A stretch of 64,000 nt of DNA from Nitrosopumilaceae archaeon (GTDB taxonomy: Archaea > Thermoproteota > Nitrososphaeria > Nitrososphaerales > Nitrosopumilaceae). The DNA is taken from contig CBDCCK010000002.1 in assembly GCA_965214835.1 (NCBI GenBank), forward strand, positions 1,760,001-1,824,000. Direction: 5' to 3'. A program made the position numbers and the translations under genes. Each line of letters opens with the position of its first letter. Position 1 is the stretch's first letter. Shown here in pieces: positions 5,378 to 54,200 of the stretch. The notes under the pieces are model-generated. The model had not been told where the DNA came from and ran no database searches. It saw only the letters and a list, made by a program, of their open reading frames with translations.

Positions 5378-6462
5378 GCCAAAACGGGATCATTCGAAAA
5401 GTATATGGATCGCCTAACCGGCGCAGAGGTATGGCAAAAGAAACAGACAGAAGCCTGTCAGAGGCCATGCGCAAGGAAAAGGATGTCAAAGTCTACAAGA
5501 AGATCATGGCGCTGATGTTTGTGCTAGAGGACGACGTGGGCGTGCCCGAGACTGCAAGAAGGGTCCGGTGCAGCGAGAATTCCGTGCGCAACTGGCTGGC
5601 GAGGTTTTCGGAGGACGGCATAGACGGCCTCCGGGATCTTCCCCGTTCCGGACGCAGGCCAAGGGCGGACAGAGAAAGTATTGCCGCCATAATGGACCTG
5701 TCCACTGCATGCAAAAGTACCGACGTCATGACGGTACGCGACGACATAAGGGATGCCACCGGGACAGAATACGGCATGGAACATGTCCGAAGGCTGATGC
5801 GCCGGCACGGCCTGTCGCGCCGCAAGGTGCAAAATATACATGCCAGCCATGCCGCCCCGAGCTCGGTATACTCGTGGCAGTGGTATCTTGAAAACGTGCG
5901 GATTCCGTGCCTGAAAGACGACGGTTTTACGCCGGTATCCTCTGACGAGTCGTTCTTTGTGCAGGGCGCATACGACAGGCACGTATGGGGTCCGGTCGGC
6001 ACCAGAAGCGTGGCATCGTATTCGGGGGACCACACAAAGGTGGCCGTGTTTGGAAGCATCGCAGAGGACGGCAGAAGGCTGTTCAGGACGCTTGCAGGAT
6101 CCTTTACGTCGGTGCAGTTCATGGAATGTCTGGAGGCGCTGCGCGCCAAGTTCGGCAGGGCTGCCGTCTTTTGCGACAGGCGGGGCGCGCGCAGATCTGC
6201 TGACGTCGCAGAATATCTGGCCGGCCATCCCGACGTCAGGCTGATAATGATCCCGAGGGGATCGCCGTACCTCAATGTCGTGGAAGAATGCTGGAACCTG
6301 GGCAAGCATGCCGTGTTCATGGGGATAGTGTACAGAAAGATCAGCGAGCTGCGGCACACCGTATCCGAGTATTACAGGACGGCGTCGTTTGCCCACCTCT
6401 GCATGTACAAGTACATCTACAGATCGCCGGTCAAAGCCCTCAATTACTTGTGACCGTTGCTA
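5355..6462 (+). mobile_element. IS630-family element; transposase 5431-6453
   Basis: TIR TAGCAATGATCA/TGACCGTTGCTA with flanking TA; HTH plus DDE_3 motifs (SDES, FCDR, SPYLNVVEECW). Confidence 0.9.
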
Positions 6463-7635: not shown

Positions 7636-8358
7636 ATGGACAGCATCTGTGTGAGGACTCCACTCCATATCCAACAGCTATTAGAAACTAAATCCATGGA
7701 GAAAAGCATGACAGTAGGTCAGTATGCCGAGCATCTCGTAAGGAAGGGCATCTCCACAATCATGTATTATCATCAATTCCATGCAAACGGCGATACTCTA
7801 GGTGAGAAGGTCACCAGCTCATTGGTGAGGTATGGGATAAAGAGCGCCTCCAACATACGTCTAGGTGCTAGGATCAAGATCGATCCCATACAGTTGGCAG
7901 CCGAAGAGGATCAGCGCTGGGAGCAGATAGTAACCATGTACCAAGGTGCAGCTAAAACGAGCGGCACGACATTCCTGATAACCAGTCAGCTGAACGAGTT
8001 CATACGGGACGCCGCCAAGCAGTTACACAAACCGATGAGCCTTGTGTTTTTGACATATTTGCAGTTGGGTCTTGCCGTATTGGTTTGGCGCGGCGGCCGT
8101 AGTGAGGATCTGCCGCGAAAGGACATAGAGCGCATAGACCAAATACTGGATGACATCTACATGTCTGAGGCCGAGCTGGAGTTCACTGGACGTGGCTTGG
8201 AAGTATACATCGTCAAAAAAAAAGCAAGTCCCAAAATCCCTCATGGAGAGGCAATTAAAATGATCAAAGATGGTCCGTTGGCTAGACCACGAATCAACGC
8301 CAACCGAGACCGCCAAAAGCAACCTCCAAAACCAAGAGGTCAAGGAGGCTACCAATGA
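7636..8358 (+). CDS. hypothetical protein with two possible ribbon-helix-helix segments
   Basis: 240-aa ORF after an AT-rich promoter-like region. SICVRTPLHIQQLL... and TTFLITSQLNEFIRDAAKQLHKPMS look RHH-like. Confidence 0.55.
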   Translation: MDSICVRTPLHIQQLLETKSMEKSMTVGQYAEHLVRKGISTIMYYHQFHANGDTLGEKVTSSLVRYGIKSASNIRLGARIKIDPIQLAAEEDQRWEQIVTMYQGAAKTSGTTFLITSQLNEFIRDAAKQLHKPMSLVFLTYLQLGLAVLVWRGGRSEDLPRKDIERIDQILDDIYMSEAELEFTGRGLEVYIVKKKASPKIPHGEAIKMIKDGPLARPRINANRDRQKQPPKPRGQGGYQ

Positions 8359-8361
8359 CTA

Positions 8362-9455
8362 TACTGATGGTCATTGAAAATTTCGCCTGATCACACATCT
8401 TGTAAAGGTTTATAGCTCCCCACCATGTCACTCCCGGCATGAACAAGACGAAAATCCTCACGGATGCCATGCATGTCGAAAAGGATCTCAAGACTCACAC
8501 CAGAATCATGGCGGTGCGCTCCGTACTGCTTGGCAACACCACCGCACATACTGCGGAGATTGCCGACGTGACACAGCGCACCGTACAGATGTGGGTTGAA
8601 AGGTTCGAGCTTGACGGCATCGAGGGCCTCCGTGACTCCCCCAACAGGGGCAAAAAACCAAAGGTTCCGGTCGGCAGGATAAAAAAGATCGCCACGAGGC
8701 TGCGCAGGATGGAAAAGCTCACCCCGAAGAAGCTGTGCAACTGGGTGCGCCACAGGCTGCATGTCACATACAGCGTGGGAAGCATCAGGAGGATCCTGCG
8801 CGCGATGGGGTTTTCGCTAAAGACATCAACTACCAAGCTGGCAGATGCTGCCGACGCAAAAGCTGTAAGACGGTGGCAAAGAGAGGCAAAAACTGCGATA
8901 AAGCTTGCAAAAAGGCGCGGATTTAGGATAACCGTACAGGACGAATCGATATTCGTCAGTACGGGAAGGGACGGCAAAAAGTTCTGGTCGCCCGTGGGGG
9001 ACAGGATCGAGGTGGAACGATCCGGCAGAAGGGAGCGCGTCGTGGTATACGGGACGATTGCAGACGACGGAACCAGGCTGATGCGCACGTACGACAGGTT
9101 CAACAGCGCAAACTTTGTGCATTATCTTAAACAGGCGCACAAAAAGTGGGGAAAGGTCCTGATGGTGATGGACAACGCAGCACAGCACAAGACCAAAAAG
9201 GTCCGCAGATACCTAAAGAAAAATCCCGACGTTGTCTTGCTGTACCTGCCGGTAGTTAGGCCGGAGCTGAGCGCCATAGAGGCAGTCTGGAAGGATGCCA
9301 AGTACAGGCTGGTCACGTCTGCCTTTTACGACACGGTGGATCACCTCAAAAAGGCCGTCTCGGAATACTTTAGGACGTGTTCCATCAGGGTTGACATCTA
9401 CAAGTATCTTGAGCGCAGCTTGTAAGGGAGGCGAAATTTTCAATGGTCATCAGTA
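8362..9455 (+). mobile_element. IS630-family element with intact transposase 8439-9425
   Basis: About 27-bp TIR TACTGATG(G/A)(T/C)CATTGAAAATTTCGCCT, TA duplication, motifs QDES/MDNA/PELSAIEAVW. Confidence 0.93.
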
Positions 9456-9493
9456 TAGTAGGTTCCAGCCCATTATAAGATTTGCTAGGTGGT

Positions 9494-22805: not shown

Positions 22806-22873
22806 TCTTTTGTATCCTTAAACAAAATTATTATCTAGGTTATGTTACTGCCATTATAAATCATTTATATTTT

Positions 22874-23067
22874 GTATGTGGTCACGTCCCCCTGTTGCCT
22901 AGGCGTGAAAATCACAGTCATAGATGTCAATTCGTGCCTGATTGACAGGGGTAGGTGACCTCGTACGATTTTTTGTATGTGGTCACATCCCCTTGCTAGC
23001 TAGGCACGAGGATCACAATCATTCATGCTAATTCATGCCTAACTGATGATGGTAGGTGACCTCGTAC
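22874..23067. mobile_element. two tandem MITE family B copies (22874-22966 and 22975-23067)
   Basis: Each is 93 bp with ends GTATGTGGTCAC/GTGACCTCGTAC. The second is flanked by the 8-bp TSD GATTTTTT. Confidence 0.85.
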
Positions 23068-23095
23068 GATTTTTTTACTTTCGTATAGGATATGT

Positions 23096-30589: not shown

Positions 30590-31590
30590 TATTTGTCATT
30601 CTCCTCTGCTGCGGCAGCTTGTTCCCCTGCGGGTGACTCTGCGGCCACTTGCGTCTCCTCCTGTTTTTCTTCTGCGGGTGACTCTGCGGCCACTTGCGTC
30701 TCCTCCTGTTTTTCTTCTGCGGGTGACTCTGCGGCCACTTGCGTCTCCTCCTGTTTTTCTTCTGCGGGTGACTCTGCGGCCACTTGCGTCTCCTCCTGTT
30801 TTTCTTCTGCGGGTGACTCTGCGGCCACTTGCGTCTCCTCCTGTTTTTCTTCTGCGGGTGACTCTGCGGCCACTTGCGTCTCCTCCTGTTTTTCTTCTGC
30901 GGGTGACTCTGCGGCCACTTGCGTCTCCTCCTGTTTTTCTTCTGCGGGTGACTCTGCGGCCACTTGCGTCTCCTCCTGTTTTTCTTCTGCGGGTGACTCT
31001 GCGGCCACTTGCGTCTCCTCCTGTTTTTCTTCTGCGGGTGACTCTGCGGCCACTTGCGTCTCCTCCTGTTTTTCTTCTGCGGGTGACTCTGCGGCCACTT
31101 GCGTCTCCTCCTGTTTTTCTTCTGCGGGTGACTCTGCGGCCACTTGCGTCTCCTCCTGTTTTTCTTCTGCGGGTGACTCTGCGGCCACTTGCGTCTCCTC
31201 CTGTTTTTCTTCTGCGGGTGACTCTGCGGCCACTTGCGTCTCCTCCTGTTTTTCTTCTGCGGGTGACTCTGCGGCCACTTCGGCAGCCTGTGCCTCCTCC
31301 ACCTTTTTCTTTGCCCTGTCTAGCCTTGCAAAGATCGTTGGATTGACCTGCTTTTTTGCCAGCTGCTCGTCCTCATACACGTAGAATGTTCCGGTCATCA
31401 GCGGTTTTCCTACGTGTGACATCATGTTGATCGGAATGACAACCTTGCCGTCCAGCTTGAATTCCTTTGTAATCATGTCTACTGCGTCTAGCTTCTTGAG
31501 CTTGCCCCCGAGGCCTGCAAAATTACAGACAAGCTCCCTCCTCGACAGGAACGTGTTGTTCACGTCACTTACGGCCTCGATCACGGACAT
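30589..31590 (-). CDS. rps24e: 30S ribosomal protein S24e with a long acidic repeat tail
   Basis: N-terminal [10 protein letters not shown]...GTFYVYED S24e domain upstream of rps27ae; tail of ([15 protein letters not shown])n. Confidence 0.88.
30627..31280 (-). repeat. 45-bp coding tandem repeat, 14 full identical units plus a partial unit
   Basis: GGGTGACTCTGCGGCCACTT recurs every 45 bp from 30631 to 31261. Confidence 0.97.
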
Positions 31591-43611: not shown

Positions 43612-44596
43612 AATAGATCCTAGTCCTGTGTGTATTTATGTTGAGTTGTGGAATCTTTGGGAGGTCCGCCTCACGGCGCCGCCCGCGCGGTGGTCAGAAA
43701 TTGGTCCTATGCCCAACCTAAGCGATTACGATAGCAGTCTTTAATCTGCTATAGGCAATCCAAGCATTATCAACACATGCCAAGTACGAGGTCACCTATA
43801 CTGATGACCATTGAAAATTTCGCCTGATTACACATCTTGCAAAGGTTTATAGCTCTCCACCATGACCCTCTTGGCATGAACAAGACGAAAATCCTCACGG
43901 ATGCCATGCATGTCGAAAAGGATCTCAAGATTCACACCAGAATCATGGCGGTGCGCTCCGTACTGCTTGGCAACACCACTGCAGACCGCAGAGATTGCCG
44001 ACGTGACACAGCGTACAGTACAGATGTGGATCGAGAGGTTTGAGCTTGACGGCATCGACGGCCTCCGTGACTCCCCCAACAGGGGCAGAAAACCAAAGGT
44101 TCCGGTCGGCAGGATAAAAAAGATCGCCACAAAGTTGCGCAGGACGGAAAAGCTCACCCCGAAGAAGCTGTGCAACTGGGTGCGCCGCAGGCTGCATGTC
44201 ACATACAGCGTGGGAAGCATCAGAAGAATCCTGCGCACGATGGGATTCTCGCTAAAGACGTCAACCACCAAGCTGGCAGATGCTGCCGACGAAGGCGGTA
44301 AGACGGTGGCAAAGGGCGGCAAAAGACACGATTGCGCTTGCAAAAAGGCGCGGATTTAGGATAACTGTACAGGACGAATCGATATTCGTCAGTACGGGAA
44401 GGGACGGCAGAAAGTTCTGGTCGCCAGTGGGGGACAGGATCTAGGTGCAACGATCCGGCAGAAGGGAGCGCGTCGTGGTATACGGAACGATTGCAGACGA
44501 CGGAACCAGGCTGATGCGCACGTACGACAAGTTCAACAGTGCAAACTTTGTGCGTTATCTTAAACAGGCGCACAAAAAGTGGGGAAAGGTTCTGAT

Positions 44597-44689
44597 GTAC
44601 GAGGTCACCTACCCCTGCCAATCAGGCACGAACTGACATCTATGACTATGATTTTCATGCCTAGTCAACAGGGGGACGTGACCACATAC
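44597..44689. mobile_element. MITE family B (93 bp) inside IS630 transposase
   Basis: Ends GTACGAGGTCAC/GTGACCACATAC; exact 8-bp TSD GTTCTGAT. Confidence 0.92.
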
Positions 44690-44842
44690 GTTCTGATGGT
44701 GATGGACAACGCAGCACAGCACAAGACCAAAAAGATCCGCAGATACCTAAAGAAAAATCCCGACGTTGTCTTGCTGTACCTGCCGGTAGCTAGGCCGGAG
44801 CTGAGCGCCATAGAGGCAGTCTGGAAGGATGCCAAGTACAGG

Positions 44843-44952
44843 CTGGTCACGTCGGCCTTTTATGACACGGTAGATCACCCGATACCTCCGCGTAGACTGC
44901 CATCGCCATACCCATCTGGTCACGTCGGCCTTTTATGACACGGTAGATCACC
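44843..44952. repeat. 37-bp direct repeat / 36-bp unique spacer / 37-bp direct repeat
   Basis: CTGGTCACGTCGGCCTTTTATGACACGGTAGATCACC at 44843-44879 and 44916-44952; spacer CGATACCTCCGCGTAGACTGCCATCGCCATACCCAT. The intact IS copy has the segment once (about 9309-9345). Confidence 0.95.
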
Positions 44953-46075
44953 TCAAAAGGGCCGTCTCGGAATACTTTAGGACGTGCTCCATCAAGATTG
45001 ACATCTACAAGTATCTTGAGCGCAGCGTGTAAGGGAGGCGAAATTTTCAATGATCATCAGTATAGTTTTGACGTGTTTTGACAACCTGCTTAACATATTG
45101 CGATCATGCTGATCAAATACGATGCCTGCATGGCATCAGTACCATGAAAGGCCGTCGACCCACATACCGCGAACTAGAGGCCACAATCGTATCAGTCACA
45201 GACAGAATAAGCACGCTAGAAAATAACCAAAAGGCAATGTGCAGGGTGATAATCGAGAAGGACAGGATAATCGAGAAGGACAGGATAATCGAGGAACAAG
45301 GCAGGCGGCTCCTGTACTACGAGAACTCGCCACCGTCTGCAGAATCACTAGAGTACAAGAGGCAAAAGGCGCAGCGGAAAAGGGAGAGGGTCAGTAACCG
45401 TGGCAACGGTAGCAACGGCAGCAGTAGTGGCAACAATAATGGCACCGGCAAAAAGCCGGGAGGCCAGAGGGGCCACAAGGGGACATCCAGAAGACACGAC
45501 CCCCAGAAGATGGTGCTTCATACGTTCCAGGACAACGACGGGGCGTGCTCGCCGGTGTGCATGTGCGGGAGGGCCATGGACATAACTGCCCTGATACGGG
45601 ACATCATCGACTTAACCGGTCCGGATGACAGAGACGCGGCACATAACCGAGCGTGCCACATGCAGACTGTGCGGCATTACGATATCAGCAGACGACGGAC
45701 TCCCAAGGAGGGACAGGTACGGCAAGCACATGATCTCCCTTGTGTCTGCCTTGCGCGCAAGGCACATGCCGCTGCAGTCCGTGGCAGACACGCTCAAGGA
45801 GCTTTCCGGCAGGAGCATCGCCAAATCGACCGTAATCAACATGATCGGAGAGGTATGCGACTCTATGCAAAAGCCGTCAGGCGCGATCCTGGGCGGCATC
45901 AAGAGATCATCCAACGTCAGAATAGACGAGACTGCGGCCAGCATGAACGGCAGCTGTATATGGACATGGACTGCCGAGACGGACAACGGCGTGTTTGTCA
46001 AGTACAATACGAGCAGGGGCGCACTGTTCCTGTACAGGCACATGGAGGAGTATGGCAGAATAGTGACATCTGACA

Positions 46076-48283: not shown

Positions 48284-51200
48284 TTGATGTTCATTGCAGC
48301 TGCCGTCTCAGGCCTAGCTGCCGCCGGTGGTCTGCAGGAGGCATATGCACAGCATCCCTTGGTTGAGGTAACTGCCACCGGGATGTTGGATAATAATAAT
48401 TCTATAGAGCTTGATTCTCCCTACGCCGTGGACATCTTCACCATAGGCGGCAACACCTACGCCGCAATAGCCGCCCGGCTCGACAACGGCCTCCAGATTG
48501 TGGATGTCTCCGATCCCGACAACCCTGCACCTGCCGGGAAATTGGAAGACACCGAGGGCTCCAATGAGCTGCTGCTTGAAGGCGCCTTCGACGTGGATGT
48601 CTTTATGATAGGCAGCAACACCTACGTCGCAGTGGCATCCTTCGTTGATGACGGCCTCCAGATTGTGGATGTCTCCGATCCCGCCAACCCCTCCGCCGCC
48701 GGCAGTCTGGGAAATGATGGCACCCGGGAGCTTAACGGCGCCAGAGGCGTGGATGTCTTTACGATAGGCAGCAACACCTACGTCGCAGTGGCCTCCTTTG
48801 ATGATGACGGCCTCCAGATTGTGGATGTCTCCGATCCCGCCAACCCCTCCGCCGCCGGCAGTCTGGGAAATGATGGCACCCGGGAGCTTAACGGCGCCAG
48901 AGGCGTGGACGTCTTTACGATAGGCAGCAACACCTACGCCGCAGTAATCGCCGAGACCGACGACGGCCTCCAGATTGTGGATGTCTCCGATCCCGACAAC
49001 CCTGCACCTGCCGGGAAATTGGAAGACACCGTGGGCTCAGATGAGCTGCTGCTTGATGATCCTTACGACGTGGACGTCTTTACGATAGGCAGCAACACCT
49101 ACGCCGCAGTGGCCTCCTGGGCCGACGATGGCCTCCAGATTGTAGACGTAACCGATCCCGACAACCCAGCAGCCGTCGGCAGCTTGGGAGATGGGGGCTC
49201 TAGGCTGCTTGACGGCGCCTCTGCCGTGAGTACTTTCACAATAGGCGACAAGGCCTACGCCGCAGTCACATCGACTGCCGACGACGGTCTCCAGATTGTA
49301 GATGTCACCAACCCTGCCAGTCCGGCCGCCGTCGGCAGCCTGAAAGATGGGGGCTCTAGGGAGCTTGACGGCGCCCTCGGTGTGAACGTTTTCATGATAG
49401 GCAGCAGAACCTACGCCGCAGTCACATCCTTTCTTGACGACGGCCTCCAGCTAGCGGAGATCAGCCAGATCCCGGCCAGCCCGGACAGCCCAATCCCATC
49501 CGGAAGCCTGCCCGACGGCACTAGTCTGCTACTTGAGAAATCCCGCAGCGTGGACACCTTTGAGATAGGCGGCTCCACGTATGCGGTAGCAGTCTCCAGC
49601 AGCGAGAACGGCACTCAGATCGTGGATGTCACCAACCCTGCCGCCCCGACGGCCACCGGGAACCTGGCAGACGACACCACCCGGCTGCTTGAGGGCGCCC
49701 GCGGCGTGAAAGTCTTCATGGCAGGCGGCAACACCTACGCCGTCGTCACAGCCCATGGCGACGACGGAGTCGAGGTAATCGACGTCACCGATCCGGACAA
49801 CCCGGCCTCGGTGGGGCGTCTGGCAGACGACGGCTCCCGGCTGCTTGATGGGGCCACCGCCGTGACCACCTTTGGGATCGGCACGGACACCTACGCCGCA
49901 GTCACCTCCCAGCACGATGGCGGCCTTCAGATCATAGACATAACCAATCCTGCCAGTCCGGCAGCCGCCGACAAACTGGAAGACGACGGCTCCTGGCTGC
50001 TTGGCGATACCAGCGCAGTGGACACCTTTGAGATAGGCGGCTCCACGTATGCAGTCGTGGCCTCCTGGGCCGACGACGGACTCCAGATTGTAGACGTCAC
50101 CGATCCCGACAACCTGGCAGCCGCAGGACAGCTGGCAGACGACAACGACCTACTGCTTCGTGGAATCCGTGACATGGCCGTCTTTGAGACGGGCGGCTCT
50201 GTATACGCCGCAGTGGCCTCCTGGGCCGACGACGGACTCCAGATTGTCGATATAACCGATCCCGACAACCCGGCGGCGGCAGGAAAACTGGCAGACGACA
50301 ACGACCTGCTGCTTGACGGGGCCAGCGGCGTGGAGATATTCCGGACGGACATGAAAGTCTACGCAGCAGTGGCATCCCAGACCGATGATGGCATCCAGAT
50401 TGTCGATATAACCGATCCCGACAATCCCTTGGGGGCCGGACTCGTGGGGGACGGCCCGCTGTACTCGCTTGACGCGGCACGGGATCTGGCCGTGTTTATG
50501 ATGGGTAGCAACACGTACACCGTGGTGGCCTCCGACACGGAGGGCCTCCAGACGGTAAAACTTACCGAGGCCCACAACAACGCCCCAGTCCTGGGAACAA
50601 TAGGCGACCAGACCGCAGCGCCCGATATACAGCTGGTTATAACGCCCACGGTAACCGATGCGGATTCAACTGATACGCACACGTACTTGATATCGCGTGG
50701 CACGCTGCCCGCAGCTGCCGTATTTGATACCGCGGACGGCAGCATCGTCTGGACGCCGGTTCAGGGCGATGTCGGACAGACCCACACGGTCACCATAACC
50801 GTTGATGACGGCCGCGGCGGCGCCGACTCGGAGACATTTGACATAGTCGTGGGCGAGCTGGCTGCCGTCGGCAGTCTGGGAGATGATACCAATCTGCTGC
50901 TTGGCGGCGCCCACGACGTGGACACGTTCACGATCGGACAGAACACCTATGCGGTAGTGGTCGCCGAAACAGACGACGGCATCCAGATTGTAGATGTCAC
51001 CAACCCTGCCAGCCCGGTAGCTGTCGGGCATCTGAGCGACGACACCAACATACTGCTTGATGGCCCCCGCGGCGTGGATATATCCGTGATAGGTGGCAAC
51101 ACCTACGCTATAGTTGCGACCTACTTTGAGAGCGCCCTCCAGATCGTGAACGTTACCGATCCTACTGATCCTGTAGCTGCAGGTAGTCTGAAAGATACTA

Positions 51201-54200
51201 ACAGCTTGGAGCTTGAAACCCCCCAGGCCGTGGCCGTATTCACGATAGGCAGCAACACCTACGCCGCAGTGGCCTCCTACCAGGACAATGCCCTCCAGAT
51301 CGTGGACATCACAAACCCGGCCGCCCCGATGGCCACCGGGAATTTGAAAGATGGAGGCTCCGCGCGGCTTGACGGTCCACGTGACGTGGAAATCTTCACG
51401 ATAGGTAGCAACACCTACGCCGCGGTCGCCTCCTCTTTGGACAACGCCCTCCAGATTGTAGACGTCACCGATCCTGCCGATCCGACTCCAGCCGGGAGGC
51501 TGAGCGATACGGGCTCCCGGGAGCTTGGCGGCCCCCGCGGTGTGGAAATCTTCACGATATGCAGCAACACCTACGCCGCAGTCGCCGCCTACAAAGACCA
51601 CGGCCTCCAGATCGTGGATGTCACCGATCCTGCCGATCCGATGCCCACCGGCAAACTGGAAGATAGCAACTCCCGGAATCTTCAGAGCCCCCGCGGCGTG
51701 GCCGTCTTCACCACAGGTAGCAATATCTACGCCGCAGTGGCCTCCTTTCACGACGACGGCCTCCAGATTGTAGACGTCACCGATCCGACCGATCCGACTC
51801 CAGCCGGGAGGCTGAGCGATACGGGCTCCCGGGAGCTTGGCGGCGCCAGCGCAGTGACCACCTTCACCATAGGCAGTAACACCTATGCCGCAGTTGCATC
51901 CACCTCAGATAACGGACTCCAGCTAGCGAGACTGGGCGCGGAGGCAGGGACTCTTCCCAACTGTGTCCCCGTCCTGGGTGCAATAGGCAACCAGACCGCA
52001 ACGCCGGGAATGCAGCTGACCATAACGCCTATGGTAACTGACGCCGACACAACTGACACGCACACGTATTCCATAACACGCGGCACGCTGCCGGCAGCTG
52101 CCGTATTCAATACCTCTGACGGCACCCTCGTCTGGACGCCGGTTCAGGGTGATGTCGGACAGACCCACCAAGTCACCATAACCGTTGATGACGGCCGCGG
52201 CGGCACCGACTCGGAGACCTTTGATATAGCCGTGGCCGATGAGGGTACCATTCCTCCCAACAGTTCGCCGGTGGCACCTAACGAGACGGCAACCACCGCA
52301 GAGGACACACCCATTACCATAACGCCTGCCATATCGGATCCAGACACATCGGATACCCCTGTAATATCGGCAGTAGAGAACCCGCCAAACGGGTCTGCCA
52401 CCCATGATGATACCACCATAACCTACATTCCCGACCAGGATTATGTGGGTACGGACACCTTCGGATATACGATATCTGACGGCACCGACACGGCGCAGGG
52501 CACCGTAACGATAACCGTCACACGCGACAACAATGATCCTGTCATGGACACCATAGGCAACCAGAACGCGGTGTTGGACATCCCATTAACAGTAACGCCT
52601 AGGGTAACTGACGCCGACACAACTGACACGCACACGTACTCTATATCGCGCGGCACGCTGCCCGCAGCTGCCGTATTCAATACCTCTGACGGCACCCTCG
52701 TCTGGACGCCGGTTCAGGGTGATGTCGGACAGACCCACCAAGTCACCATAACCGTTGATGACGGCCGCGGCGGCACCGATTCGGAGACCTTTGGGATAAC
52801 AGTGGCCGCCCGGGCCGTGATAATACTTAACGGCACCGACCCATGGCACCACGAGCTTGGCGATGACCCGTATATAGATCCGGGAGCCGAGGCAACCGAC
52901 GGCTCGACAGTCAACACCGACGCCTCTGCTGTAGACGTAAACGTGGCAGGCAACTATACCGTAAATTATACGGCAACCGACACCCAAGGCGACATCATCA
53001 TGGCCAACCGGACCGTTCAGGTGCGCGACACCACGCCGCCGGTCATCGATATATCGGGCAACCCACAGGTCACCACACCGCTGGGCTCAGAATATACCGA
53101 TGCCGGTGCCACGTCCACCGACAACGATCCGAACTATGCAGACGCCGTCTCTGATGATGCCGCCTCGGTGGATACGTCCCGGCCCGGAACCTATACGGTG
53201 ACCTACACGGCAACCGATGCTGCCGGCAACACGGGAACTGCCACGAGGACCGTGACGATACCTGTGGAGTACATAACGATGGGCGCCCTGATTCCGCAGA
53301 CGGGTGGACTGGGCGGCCAGCTTGGAGAGCACCACACATTTGCGGCCAATGCCGCCGTCGATGACCTCAACGCCTACCTTGAGAGGAACGGCGCAGTCTG
53401 GCGCGCCGACCAGCTGGTCATCAATGATACGGAGGCTGCCGACGTGCAGACCCTGATCCGGTCGCTTGACTCGGCAGGCATAACGATGGTCTCCGGGCCC
53501 GTCCGCAGCTCCGAGCTGGACGCCATAAGGAATTATGCCGATTCCAACGGCATGATACTTGTCAGCTGCTGCTCGACTGCGCTCTCGCTTGCAATCGAGG
53601 GCGACAACATCTTCAGGCTGGCGCCGGATGACTCGCAGCAGGGATCCGTGATTGCCGGCCTGCTCGGCGACGAGTACGAAAAGGACGTCATGGTCGTGGT
53701 GTGGAGGGACGACATCTGGGGCGAGGGCATCAGAAACTCGGCTGTGACCGAATTTGAGGCGCTCGGCGGCACGGCAGACGAGCTGGGCAGCTATGATCCG
53801 GACGATCCCGACCTGGACGGCACCTTTGAGGCACTGGCCGCACGGCTCAGCACGGCCGTCTCCGGACATGTGGAGAATGTGGGCGCAGACCGGGTCTCCG
53901 TCCTGTTCATAGGGCAGGAGGAGATGTCCCGGTTCGTGGCAAAGGCGGCCGGCCATCCGGTGCTGGGTACGGTACAGTGGATGGGCTCGGATGCCTCCGT
54001 CAACAGCGCGGCGCTGGTCGATGCTCCCAGGGTATTTGAGTTCCTGAGGGATGCAGACTTTCAGGCGTCTGTCTTTGCAGAGGACTCGGACAGCCCCGCA
54101 TACAGGTACCTGACGGATCTGATCGACGACGAGTTTGGCACCGCGCCTGCCGTGTATACCTACGGCATGTACGATACCATATGGGTGATGGGACTGGCAC

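Follow-up and report, generated by a model that had tools for sequence, protein, structure and literature searches.

A 36-bp insert within a 37-bp duplication of an archaeal IS630 copy as a very probable product of off-target spacer integration by a type I-G CRISPR adaptation machinery

What kind of event places a 36-bp sequence that occurs nowhere else in a genome between two identical 37-bp copies of a piece of transposase gene? The question is raised by a locus in a Nitrosopumilaceae archaeon (genome G000, 3.22 Mb, 52.6% G+C), and more precisely in the window G000:C2:1760001-1824000, the whole stretch of 64,000 nucleotides that was analysed. A first, sequence-only reading of this DNA had proposed a natural ectopic spacer acquisition that gave rise to a newborn one-spacer CRISPR array. 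The coordinates of the features are collected in Table 1.

Table 1. Features of the locus and of related sites (window positions unless marked G000:C2)
Feature	Position	Strand	Basis or remark
Repeat copy 1, duplicated target, 37 bp	44843..44879	+	Exact match to copy 2
Spacer-like insert, 36 bp, unique in genome	44880..44915	+	Genome-wide sequence search
Repeat copy 2, duplicated target, 37 bp	44916..44952	+	100% identity to copy 1; start-to-start spacing of the 37-bp direct repeats 73
Left junction CAGG/CTGG	44839..44846	+	Fits C at -4, G at -2, G/C at +1, G at +4
Host IS630-family copy, decayed, 30-bp terminal inverted repeats	43796..45066	+	Boundaries and inverted ends
92-bp MITE with 9-bp target duplication, inside the same IS630 copy	44598..44689	+	Sister coordinates overlap by 9 bp
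Intact sister IS630, empty site at 9309-9345	8358..9459	+	Alignment
ORF with in-frame unit (G000:C2)	557662-558345
ORF with in-frame unit (G000:C2)	3127372-3128625
ORF with in-frame unit (G000:C2)	1849715-1850851
ORF with in-frame unit (G000:C2)	2366447-2367499

The two identical copies and the insert between them, described in the first reading as found nowhere else in the window, were re-derived with the same coordinates and the same uniqueness. The limits of the repeats are exact because the flanking bases differ at both sides, with G and T preceding copies 1 and 2, and C and T following them. The repeat can be read equally well as a 36-bp duplication extended by one chance-matching base, in which case the insert measures 37 bp, and an exact pair of 37-mers cannot have arisen by chance. 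The 36-mer is single-copy in the window with up to 3 mismatches allowed (0 of 100 shuffles matched) and single-copy in the 3.22-Mb genome, where the runner-up BLAST match extends over 14 nt (E=0.23). Terminal inverted repeats are absent from the insert, as had been noted from the start. Repeats of other kinds are present elsewhere in the window, namely a perfect tandem repeat at 30627-31280 (45-bp unit, 14.5 copies, 100% matches) and long runs with a 156-bp period at 48427-51922 (71-80% matches), which resemble protein-coding repeats.

The IS630 copy that hosts the unit contains only short ORFs and its frame is broken in several places, so that the 73-bp gain sits in a transposase gene that is broken already. 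The sister IS630 in the same window has an ORF (8439-9425) with DDE_3 and HTH domains, and its alignment with the host copy presents a clean 73-column gap at the unit. The earlier observation that the sister carries the segment once and without insert was confirmed and extended to the whole genome, in which 25 paralogous sites are empty and 1 is filled. Three bases that distinguish the host copy from the sister occur in both repeat copies, and the duplication was therefore templated by the host copy's own DNA. The MITE found in the same IS630 copy, about 250 bp upstream of the unit, has 138 matches in the genome and is a separate event, earlier or later than the unit. Two tandem copies of a 101-bp unit related to this MITE lie at window positions 22870-23075. 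An origin of the unit itself by IS or MITE insertion was considered and rejected, given that the insert is unique and has no inverted ends, and that the duplication is 37 bp long, not short.

A spacer acquisition of the kind proposed points to adaptation genes and to an array of corresponding dimensions in the same genome, and both are present. One complete type I-G CRISPR-Cas locus lies 677 kb from the unit, at about 2.48 Mb of C2, adjoined by archaeal ribosomal protein genes. Its gene order is Cas4g/Cas1g, Cas2, a leader of about 240 bp, an array of 148 repeats, an IS630 copy, Cas3g, Cas8g2, Cas7g and Csb2. The single Cas1 match in the genome is the 566-aa Cas4g/Cas1g fusion (NF049935; 754.8 bits, cut-off 560), which is adjoined by Cas2 (59.7 bits), both with open frames. 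The frames of the interference genes are open too, with 630 bits for Cas3g and 100.8 bits for Cas8g2, the latter under its cut-off of 125. The IS630 copy of this locus is placed directly between the CRISPR array and cas3g (L044 181-1200).

In the native array, all 148 repeats are the identical 36-mer and the spacers measure 35-41 bp, with periods (n=147) of 73 (54), 72 (45), 74 (18), 75 (16), 71 (7) and 76 (4), plus three outliers. The period of the unit, 73, is thus the commonest native one; its 36-bp insert falls inside the native spacer range and has the length of 45 of the 147 native spacers, and its duplication of 37 bp, of which one base may be a chance match, compares with a native repeat of 36 bp. 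The native repeat folds to a 7-bp hairpin (-11.7 kcal/mol, z=-3.0). A second, small array at C2:135841-136367 has a variant repeat and a related leader, and both native leaders end in C-N-G-N ahead of the repeat (ACGGG and GCAGT, respectively).

The same geometry recurs throughout the chromosome, where no other spacing is as over-represented. In a comparison of the chromosome with itself at every offset, in which isolated, non-tandem and non-low-complexity matches were kept, exact runs of at least 24 at offsets 30-300 with repeats of at least 30 bp gave 41 pairs at periods 71-76, compared with 37 further pairs over the other 265 offsets. With mismatches allowed, 50 of 85 isolated pairs at offsets 40-140 have periods of 71-76 (21 at 72, 9 at 73, 9 at 75, 5 at 74, 4 at 71 and 2 at 76), while most other spacings have about 0-1. 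The only other peaks in this range, at 84 (13) and 79 (4), both correspond to multicopy element families. After removal of seven extra repeat-family rows (1624026, 2343414, 2692095, 2257292, 1995606, 1966990 and 1973493), about 44 distinct units are left, among them those at G000:C2 positions 717492, 1066066, 2201735, 2466942, 2950434 and 3161274. Their repeats of 35-39 bp and inserts of 33-40 bp match the native array, and isolated repeats of this size and distance, for which the first reading had suggested a scan, are hugely enriched genome-wide. Among the 34 units with exact repeats, the repeat lengths are 36 (14), 37 (11), 38 (3), 39 (1), 35 (3) and 34 (2), a spread that is what would be expected from a 36-bp duplication with occasional chance extension. 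Paralogous empty sites are known for 20 of 46 unit rows, which represent 19 distinct units. The view of the unit as a spacer acquisition is supported by this set, but that of a lone event is not, as it is one of about 44.

Three families were not counted as independent events. The period-79 family has 4 copies (1308256, 1624026, 2343414 and 2692095), in which an internal 42-bp repeat encloses a 37-bp insert. In a related group (1736693/2257292/1995606), the repeat contains CCGCAACG, as does the native CRISPR repeat. Both the period-79 and the CCGCAACG families could be ectopic units spread by a mobile element, or decayed arrays. The period-84 family consists of a 28-bp direct repeat in a multicopy coding-like element at 13 places (e.g. 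272770 and 379241).

With regard to the source of the inserts, 13 of them match elsewhere in the chromosome over essentially their full length, 9 at 100% across the aligned part, and the homology to the donors ends at the insert edges. TTN is found next to 7 of the 13 donors in one orientation (background 11.8%, p=2.8e-4). A by-eye check of the PAM-proximal insert end against the leader-like flank in the 7 TTN-flanked units gave a mixed result. Four of the 13 map to the 10-kb interval 897-907 kb (G000:C2:900127-906409; p=7e-8), at orc1/cdc6 and the gene for the PolD small subunit and near the maximum of the cumulative GC skew. The orc1/cdc6 locus is likely to be the replication origin, and the donor cluster may reflect the capture of replication-associated DNA ends.

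Among the 147 spacers of the native array, just one matches the assembly over nearly its full length. This is spacer 41 (G000:C2:2485136), which agrees with positions 6366-6401 of the 13-kb contig C1 in 36 of 37 bases; the mismatch falls on the first position, and ...GTT stands upstream. The matching contig could represent an escape variant of a resident plasmid or virus. The contrast between this single native self-match and the 13 chromosome-derived inserts of the units fits a purging of self-targeting spacers from the expressed array, and it fits as well a tolerance of self-derived spacers at ectopic sites. For the 36-mer of the window unit, no exact match was found in viral, genome and metagenome contigs, a search that a diverged donor would escape, nor any match at up to 3 mismatches among 200 family genomes, nor any blastn match among phages and plasmids.

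These inserts bear on the idea that the unit is the footprint of a mobile element (a casposon, or some unknown transposon) that duplicates long targets and would have been lost except for 36 bp. Casposases are related to Cas1, and the first reading had brought them into consideration; moreover, 41 other genomes of the 201 searched have sub-cut-off matches to Cas4g/Cas1g (E<=1e-20), mostly to its Cas1 part, some of which may be casposases (the count includes the unpublished genomes G077 and G092, on which nothing depends). Nevertheless, the genome of the unit has no casposase, its single Cas1 match being the CRISPR Cas4/Cas1 fusion, so the casposase suggestion was abandoned. Repeats and inserts all differ among the units, the named multicopy families aside, which excludes a mobile element, and the 13 inserts with donors are plain copies of chromosomal DNA. 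Taken with the missing terminal inverted repeats, this leaves the footprint reading with next to no probability. Casposons have terminal inverted repeats and duplications of about 14-15 bp. A casposon insertion at the unit had also been considered in its own right and was rejected for the want of a casposase gene and of inverted ends, and for the 37-bp duplication.

The sites that received the inserts share sequence features at their edges. In 76 pooled junctions (both sides of 38 units), C is found at -4 in 38, G or C at -2 in 64, G or C at +1 in 64 and G at +4 in 34, and GG stands directly outside the repeat in 19 of the 76, compared with 7% expected. An orientation-free motif search gave an information content of 5.86, against 3.21 +/- 0.28 (maximum 3.97) in 100 random sets. 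The likeness of unit sites to the leader plus repeat is 15.0 of 46 positions, versus 13.2 for random sites (p=1.6e-5). When the window unit was compared with the native leader and repeat, as the sequence-only reading had proposed, its left junction was seen to fit all four of the preferred positions, but the likeness of the whole site (15 of 46) is average.

Geometry and junctions together also weigh on a repair artefact without Cas proteins, in which a staggered double-strand break, or slippage during replication with template switching, would have duplicated 37 bp and captured a 36-bp filler. The capture of filler DNA at breaks is known in general and provides a precedent, and the fact that no donor of the 36-mer was found in the genome, in public contig collections or in 200 family genomes agrees with such an origin. 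Yet a repair artefact leaves unexplained why one shared geometry, equal to that of the native array, appears in 50 of 85 isolated pairs, and it accounts neither for TTN at the donors nor for the junction motif that resembles a leader end; it is thus highly unlikely.

An artefact of assembly or of chimeric reads, by which the 73-bp gain would be absent from the real chromosome, was weighed with assembled (Logan) contigs of public runs. The presence of IS630 in more than 25 copies invites misassembly, none of the listed public-run contigs spans the whole unit, and those of runs X1 and X2 do not cover the middle of the insert, so that read support for the unit is weak. On the other hand, the insert does have low-depth cover from the contigs of two public runs (X3, 5.8; X5, 2.57), and it matches nothing else in the assembly and is therefore not a mis-joined repeat. 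Contigs of X2, X3 and X5 join across the 73 bp, in the form without the unit, which is no argument against the unit because the approximately 25 normal IS copies look that way. Furthermore, an artefact would not recreate, at about 44 loci, the lengths of CRISPR repeats and spacers together with a junction motif and donors next to a PAM, and this explanation is extremely unlikely.

The unit is, very probably, the fixed product of a spacer integration that the type I-G Cas4/Cas1 fusion and Cas2 encoded in this genome carried out off target (ectopically). The sequence shows the geometry, the intactness of the enzyme genes and the empty site, as well as about 44 further events of the kind; the known donors are self-derived, 7 of the 13 being flanked by TTN. 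The natural ectopic acquisition put forward in the first reading is accordingly supported, by the single Cas4/Cas1, the native lengths, the approximately 44 units, the TTN donors and the junction motif. Judging from these sequence features, Cas4/1-Cas2 would be the catalyst and the steps would have followed in this order. A prespacer, processed to about 36 nt, would be carried by the Cas4/1-Cas2 complex, which would attack one phosphodiester on each strand of the IS630 copy, the two lying about 36 bp apart, at a site whose left edge (CAGG/C) resembles the end of the native leaders. Gap filling would then duplicate the 36-37 bp between the attack sites and yield the repeat-spacer-repeat form.

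Whether the product works as an array is a different matter. New arrays have been suggested to arise from off-target integration (Nivala et al. 2018, as cited in 10.1101/148544 and PMC6698737), and the unit has the minimal repeat-spacer-repeat form from which a transcript could be processed to a crRNA against the source of the 36-mer. Nonetheless, on neither strand does the duplicated segment fold better than shuffled sequence (z=0.15 and -0.53), its final eight bases are not those of the native 3' handle ATTGAAGC, there is one spacer and no second, and the upstream DNA is transposase coding sequence. The absence of the native hairpin and handle makes crRNA production unlikely, so that a working newborn array is very unlikely, and the term used for it in the first reading was overstated. 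The unit is probably a dead-end by-product without a function of its own, not a working new array.

The distribution of the units along the chromosome is uneven (KS p=8e-5). The 300-kb stretch just upstream of the cas locus (G000:C2, 2.2-2.5 Mb) holds 15 of the 44, and 20 of 44 are within 350 kb of this locus, compared with 22% expected; the minimum of the cumulative GC skew is at 2.3 Mb. The clustering may reflect nearness to the cas genes or to a replication landmark. The possible enrichment in IS elements raised by the sequence-only reading did not materialise, since 15 of 44 units lie in multicopy DNA (present in three or more copies) versus 397 of 1500 random sites (26%), a difference that is not significant (p=0.16). 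That about 26% of random sites fall in DNA of three or more copies indicates a genome heavily loaded with IS elements and MITEs. Periods that keep the reading frame are present in 23 of 41 units versus 61 of 144 (p=0.15), without the significant excess that selection would predict. In-frame units add about 24 residues inside long ORFs and outside Pfam domains; the four ORFs listed in Table 1 encode an S4-domain protein, an HtrA-like protease, a GT2 glycosyltransferase and a sulfotransferase.

Of the 201 family genomes searched, 14 (counting G000) have a Cas4g/Cas1g match that passes the cut-off, and three relatives that carry the fusion were sampled over about 400 kb around the cas locus each. 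In G014, which belongs to the same genus and whose native array gives 37 repeat matches, the 400 kb yielded no more than 1 candidate unit, and the phenomenon is therefore not universal. The sample of about 400 kb from G052 contains 3 candidate units (periods 70, 71 and 71; native mode 71) and that from G071 contains 4 (periods 70-73; native mode 72), while the matching stretch of G000 has 11. These small samples suggest that ectopic units are a recurring but variable phenomenon. Two of these relatives, both with about 70% G+C, have very large arrays of related 36-bp repeats, with about 540 matches at G052:C1:2941287-2981872 and about 330 at G071:C1:1072688-1096295.

Viewed across the genome, the adaptation machinery is likely to act here as a genome-wide insertional mutagen, and more sparsely in some relatives with Cas4g/Cas1g. 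On the same reading, at least about 44 off-target integrations would have been fixed, a third of them or more fed by the cell's own DNA, notably from the orc1/cdc6 region. If this is true, the units, which would not be read as crRNA, would record what the integrase captures before autoimmunity purges self-targeting spacers. Off-target spacer integration is established for over-expressed E. coli proteins and in vitro, and for its weight in nature this genome supplies dozens of natural fixed events. The known empty sites and donors, the latter for a third of the events, make it possible to study target recognition by Cas4/1-Cas2 from sequence alone. The rate and source of self-DNA capture, the strength of the autoimmune filtering of the true array and the contribution of the adaptation enzymes to gene decay and protein insertions become testable as well.

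Several known systems offer points of comparison. In Streptococcus thermophilus, according to the available text of PMC7999890, a spacer can likewise be placed away from the leader-proximal repeat, but its target is a true CRISPR repeat within an array, whereas here it is ordinary coding DNA. The type I-U/I-G Cas4/Cas1 of Geobacter sulfurreducens uses the PAM TTN and acquires new spacers with a predominant length of 36 bp, as stated in the accessible part of PMC6547450. It belongs to the same protein family (NF049935) and shares with the present system the TTN PAM and spacers of about 36 bp; by contrast, these studies describe, in the portions available, integration at the leader-repeat junction (PMC6547450, PMC10504553), and the word "off-target" does not occur in the searchable text of PMC6547450. 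Purified Cas1-Cas2 of Pyrococcus furiosus integrates into non-CRISPR DNA at sites with G or C spaced by one repeat length, as reported in PMC6698737. There is a likeness in the full-site integration and in the few conserved internal positions, with G or C at +1 in 64 of 76 junctions here, about 36 bp apart; the difference is that those experiments were carried out in vitro on plasmids with a 30-bp repeat, while the present setting is a chromosome and a repeat of 36 bp.

The closest parallel is the non-canonical integration by the type I-E system of Escherichia coli, which generates "neo-CRISPR" loci (Nivala, Shipman and Church 2018; via the accessible text of 10.1101/148544, PMC7054753 and PMC9456107). 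In that work, as summarised in the available part of PMC7054753, Cas1-Cas2 were over-produced and oligonucleotides were supplied, and the natural evidence for off-target integration, from two other species, was termed circumstantial in 10.1101/148544. No report of a comparable natural genome-wide set was found in the open-access literature searched, a search that was not exhaustive. Both in E. coli and here, a spacer-sized insert lies in a repeat-length duplication of non-CRISPR DNA and the adaptation proteins are the cell's own. Unlike the E. coli loci, however, the present ones arose in nature and have become fixed; a single archaeal genome holds about 44 of them, and they involve a type I-G Cas4/1. 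The process is already known from E. coli, and the present set adds numerous natural, archaeal instances of it.
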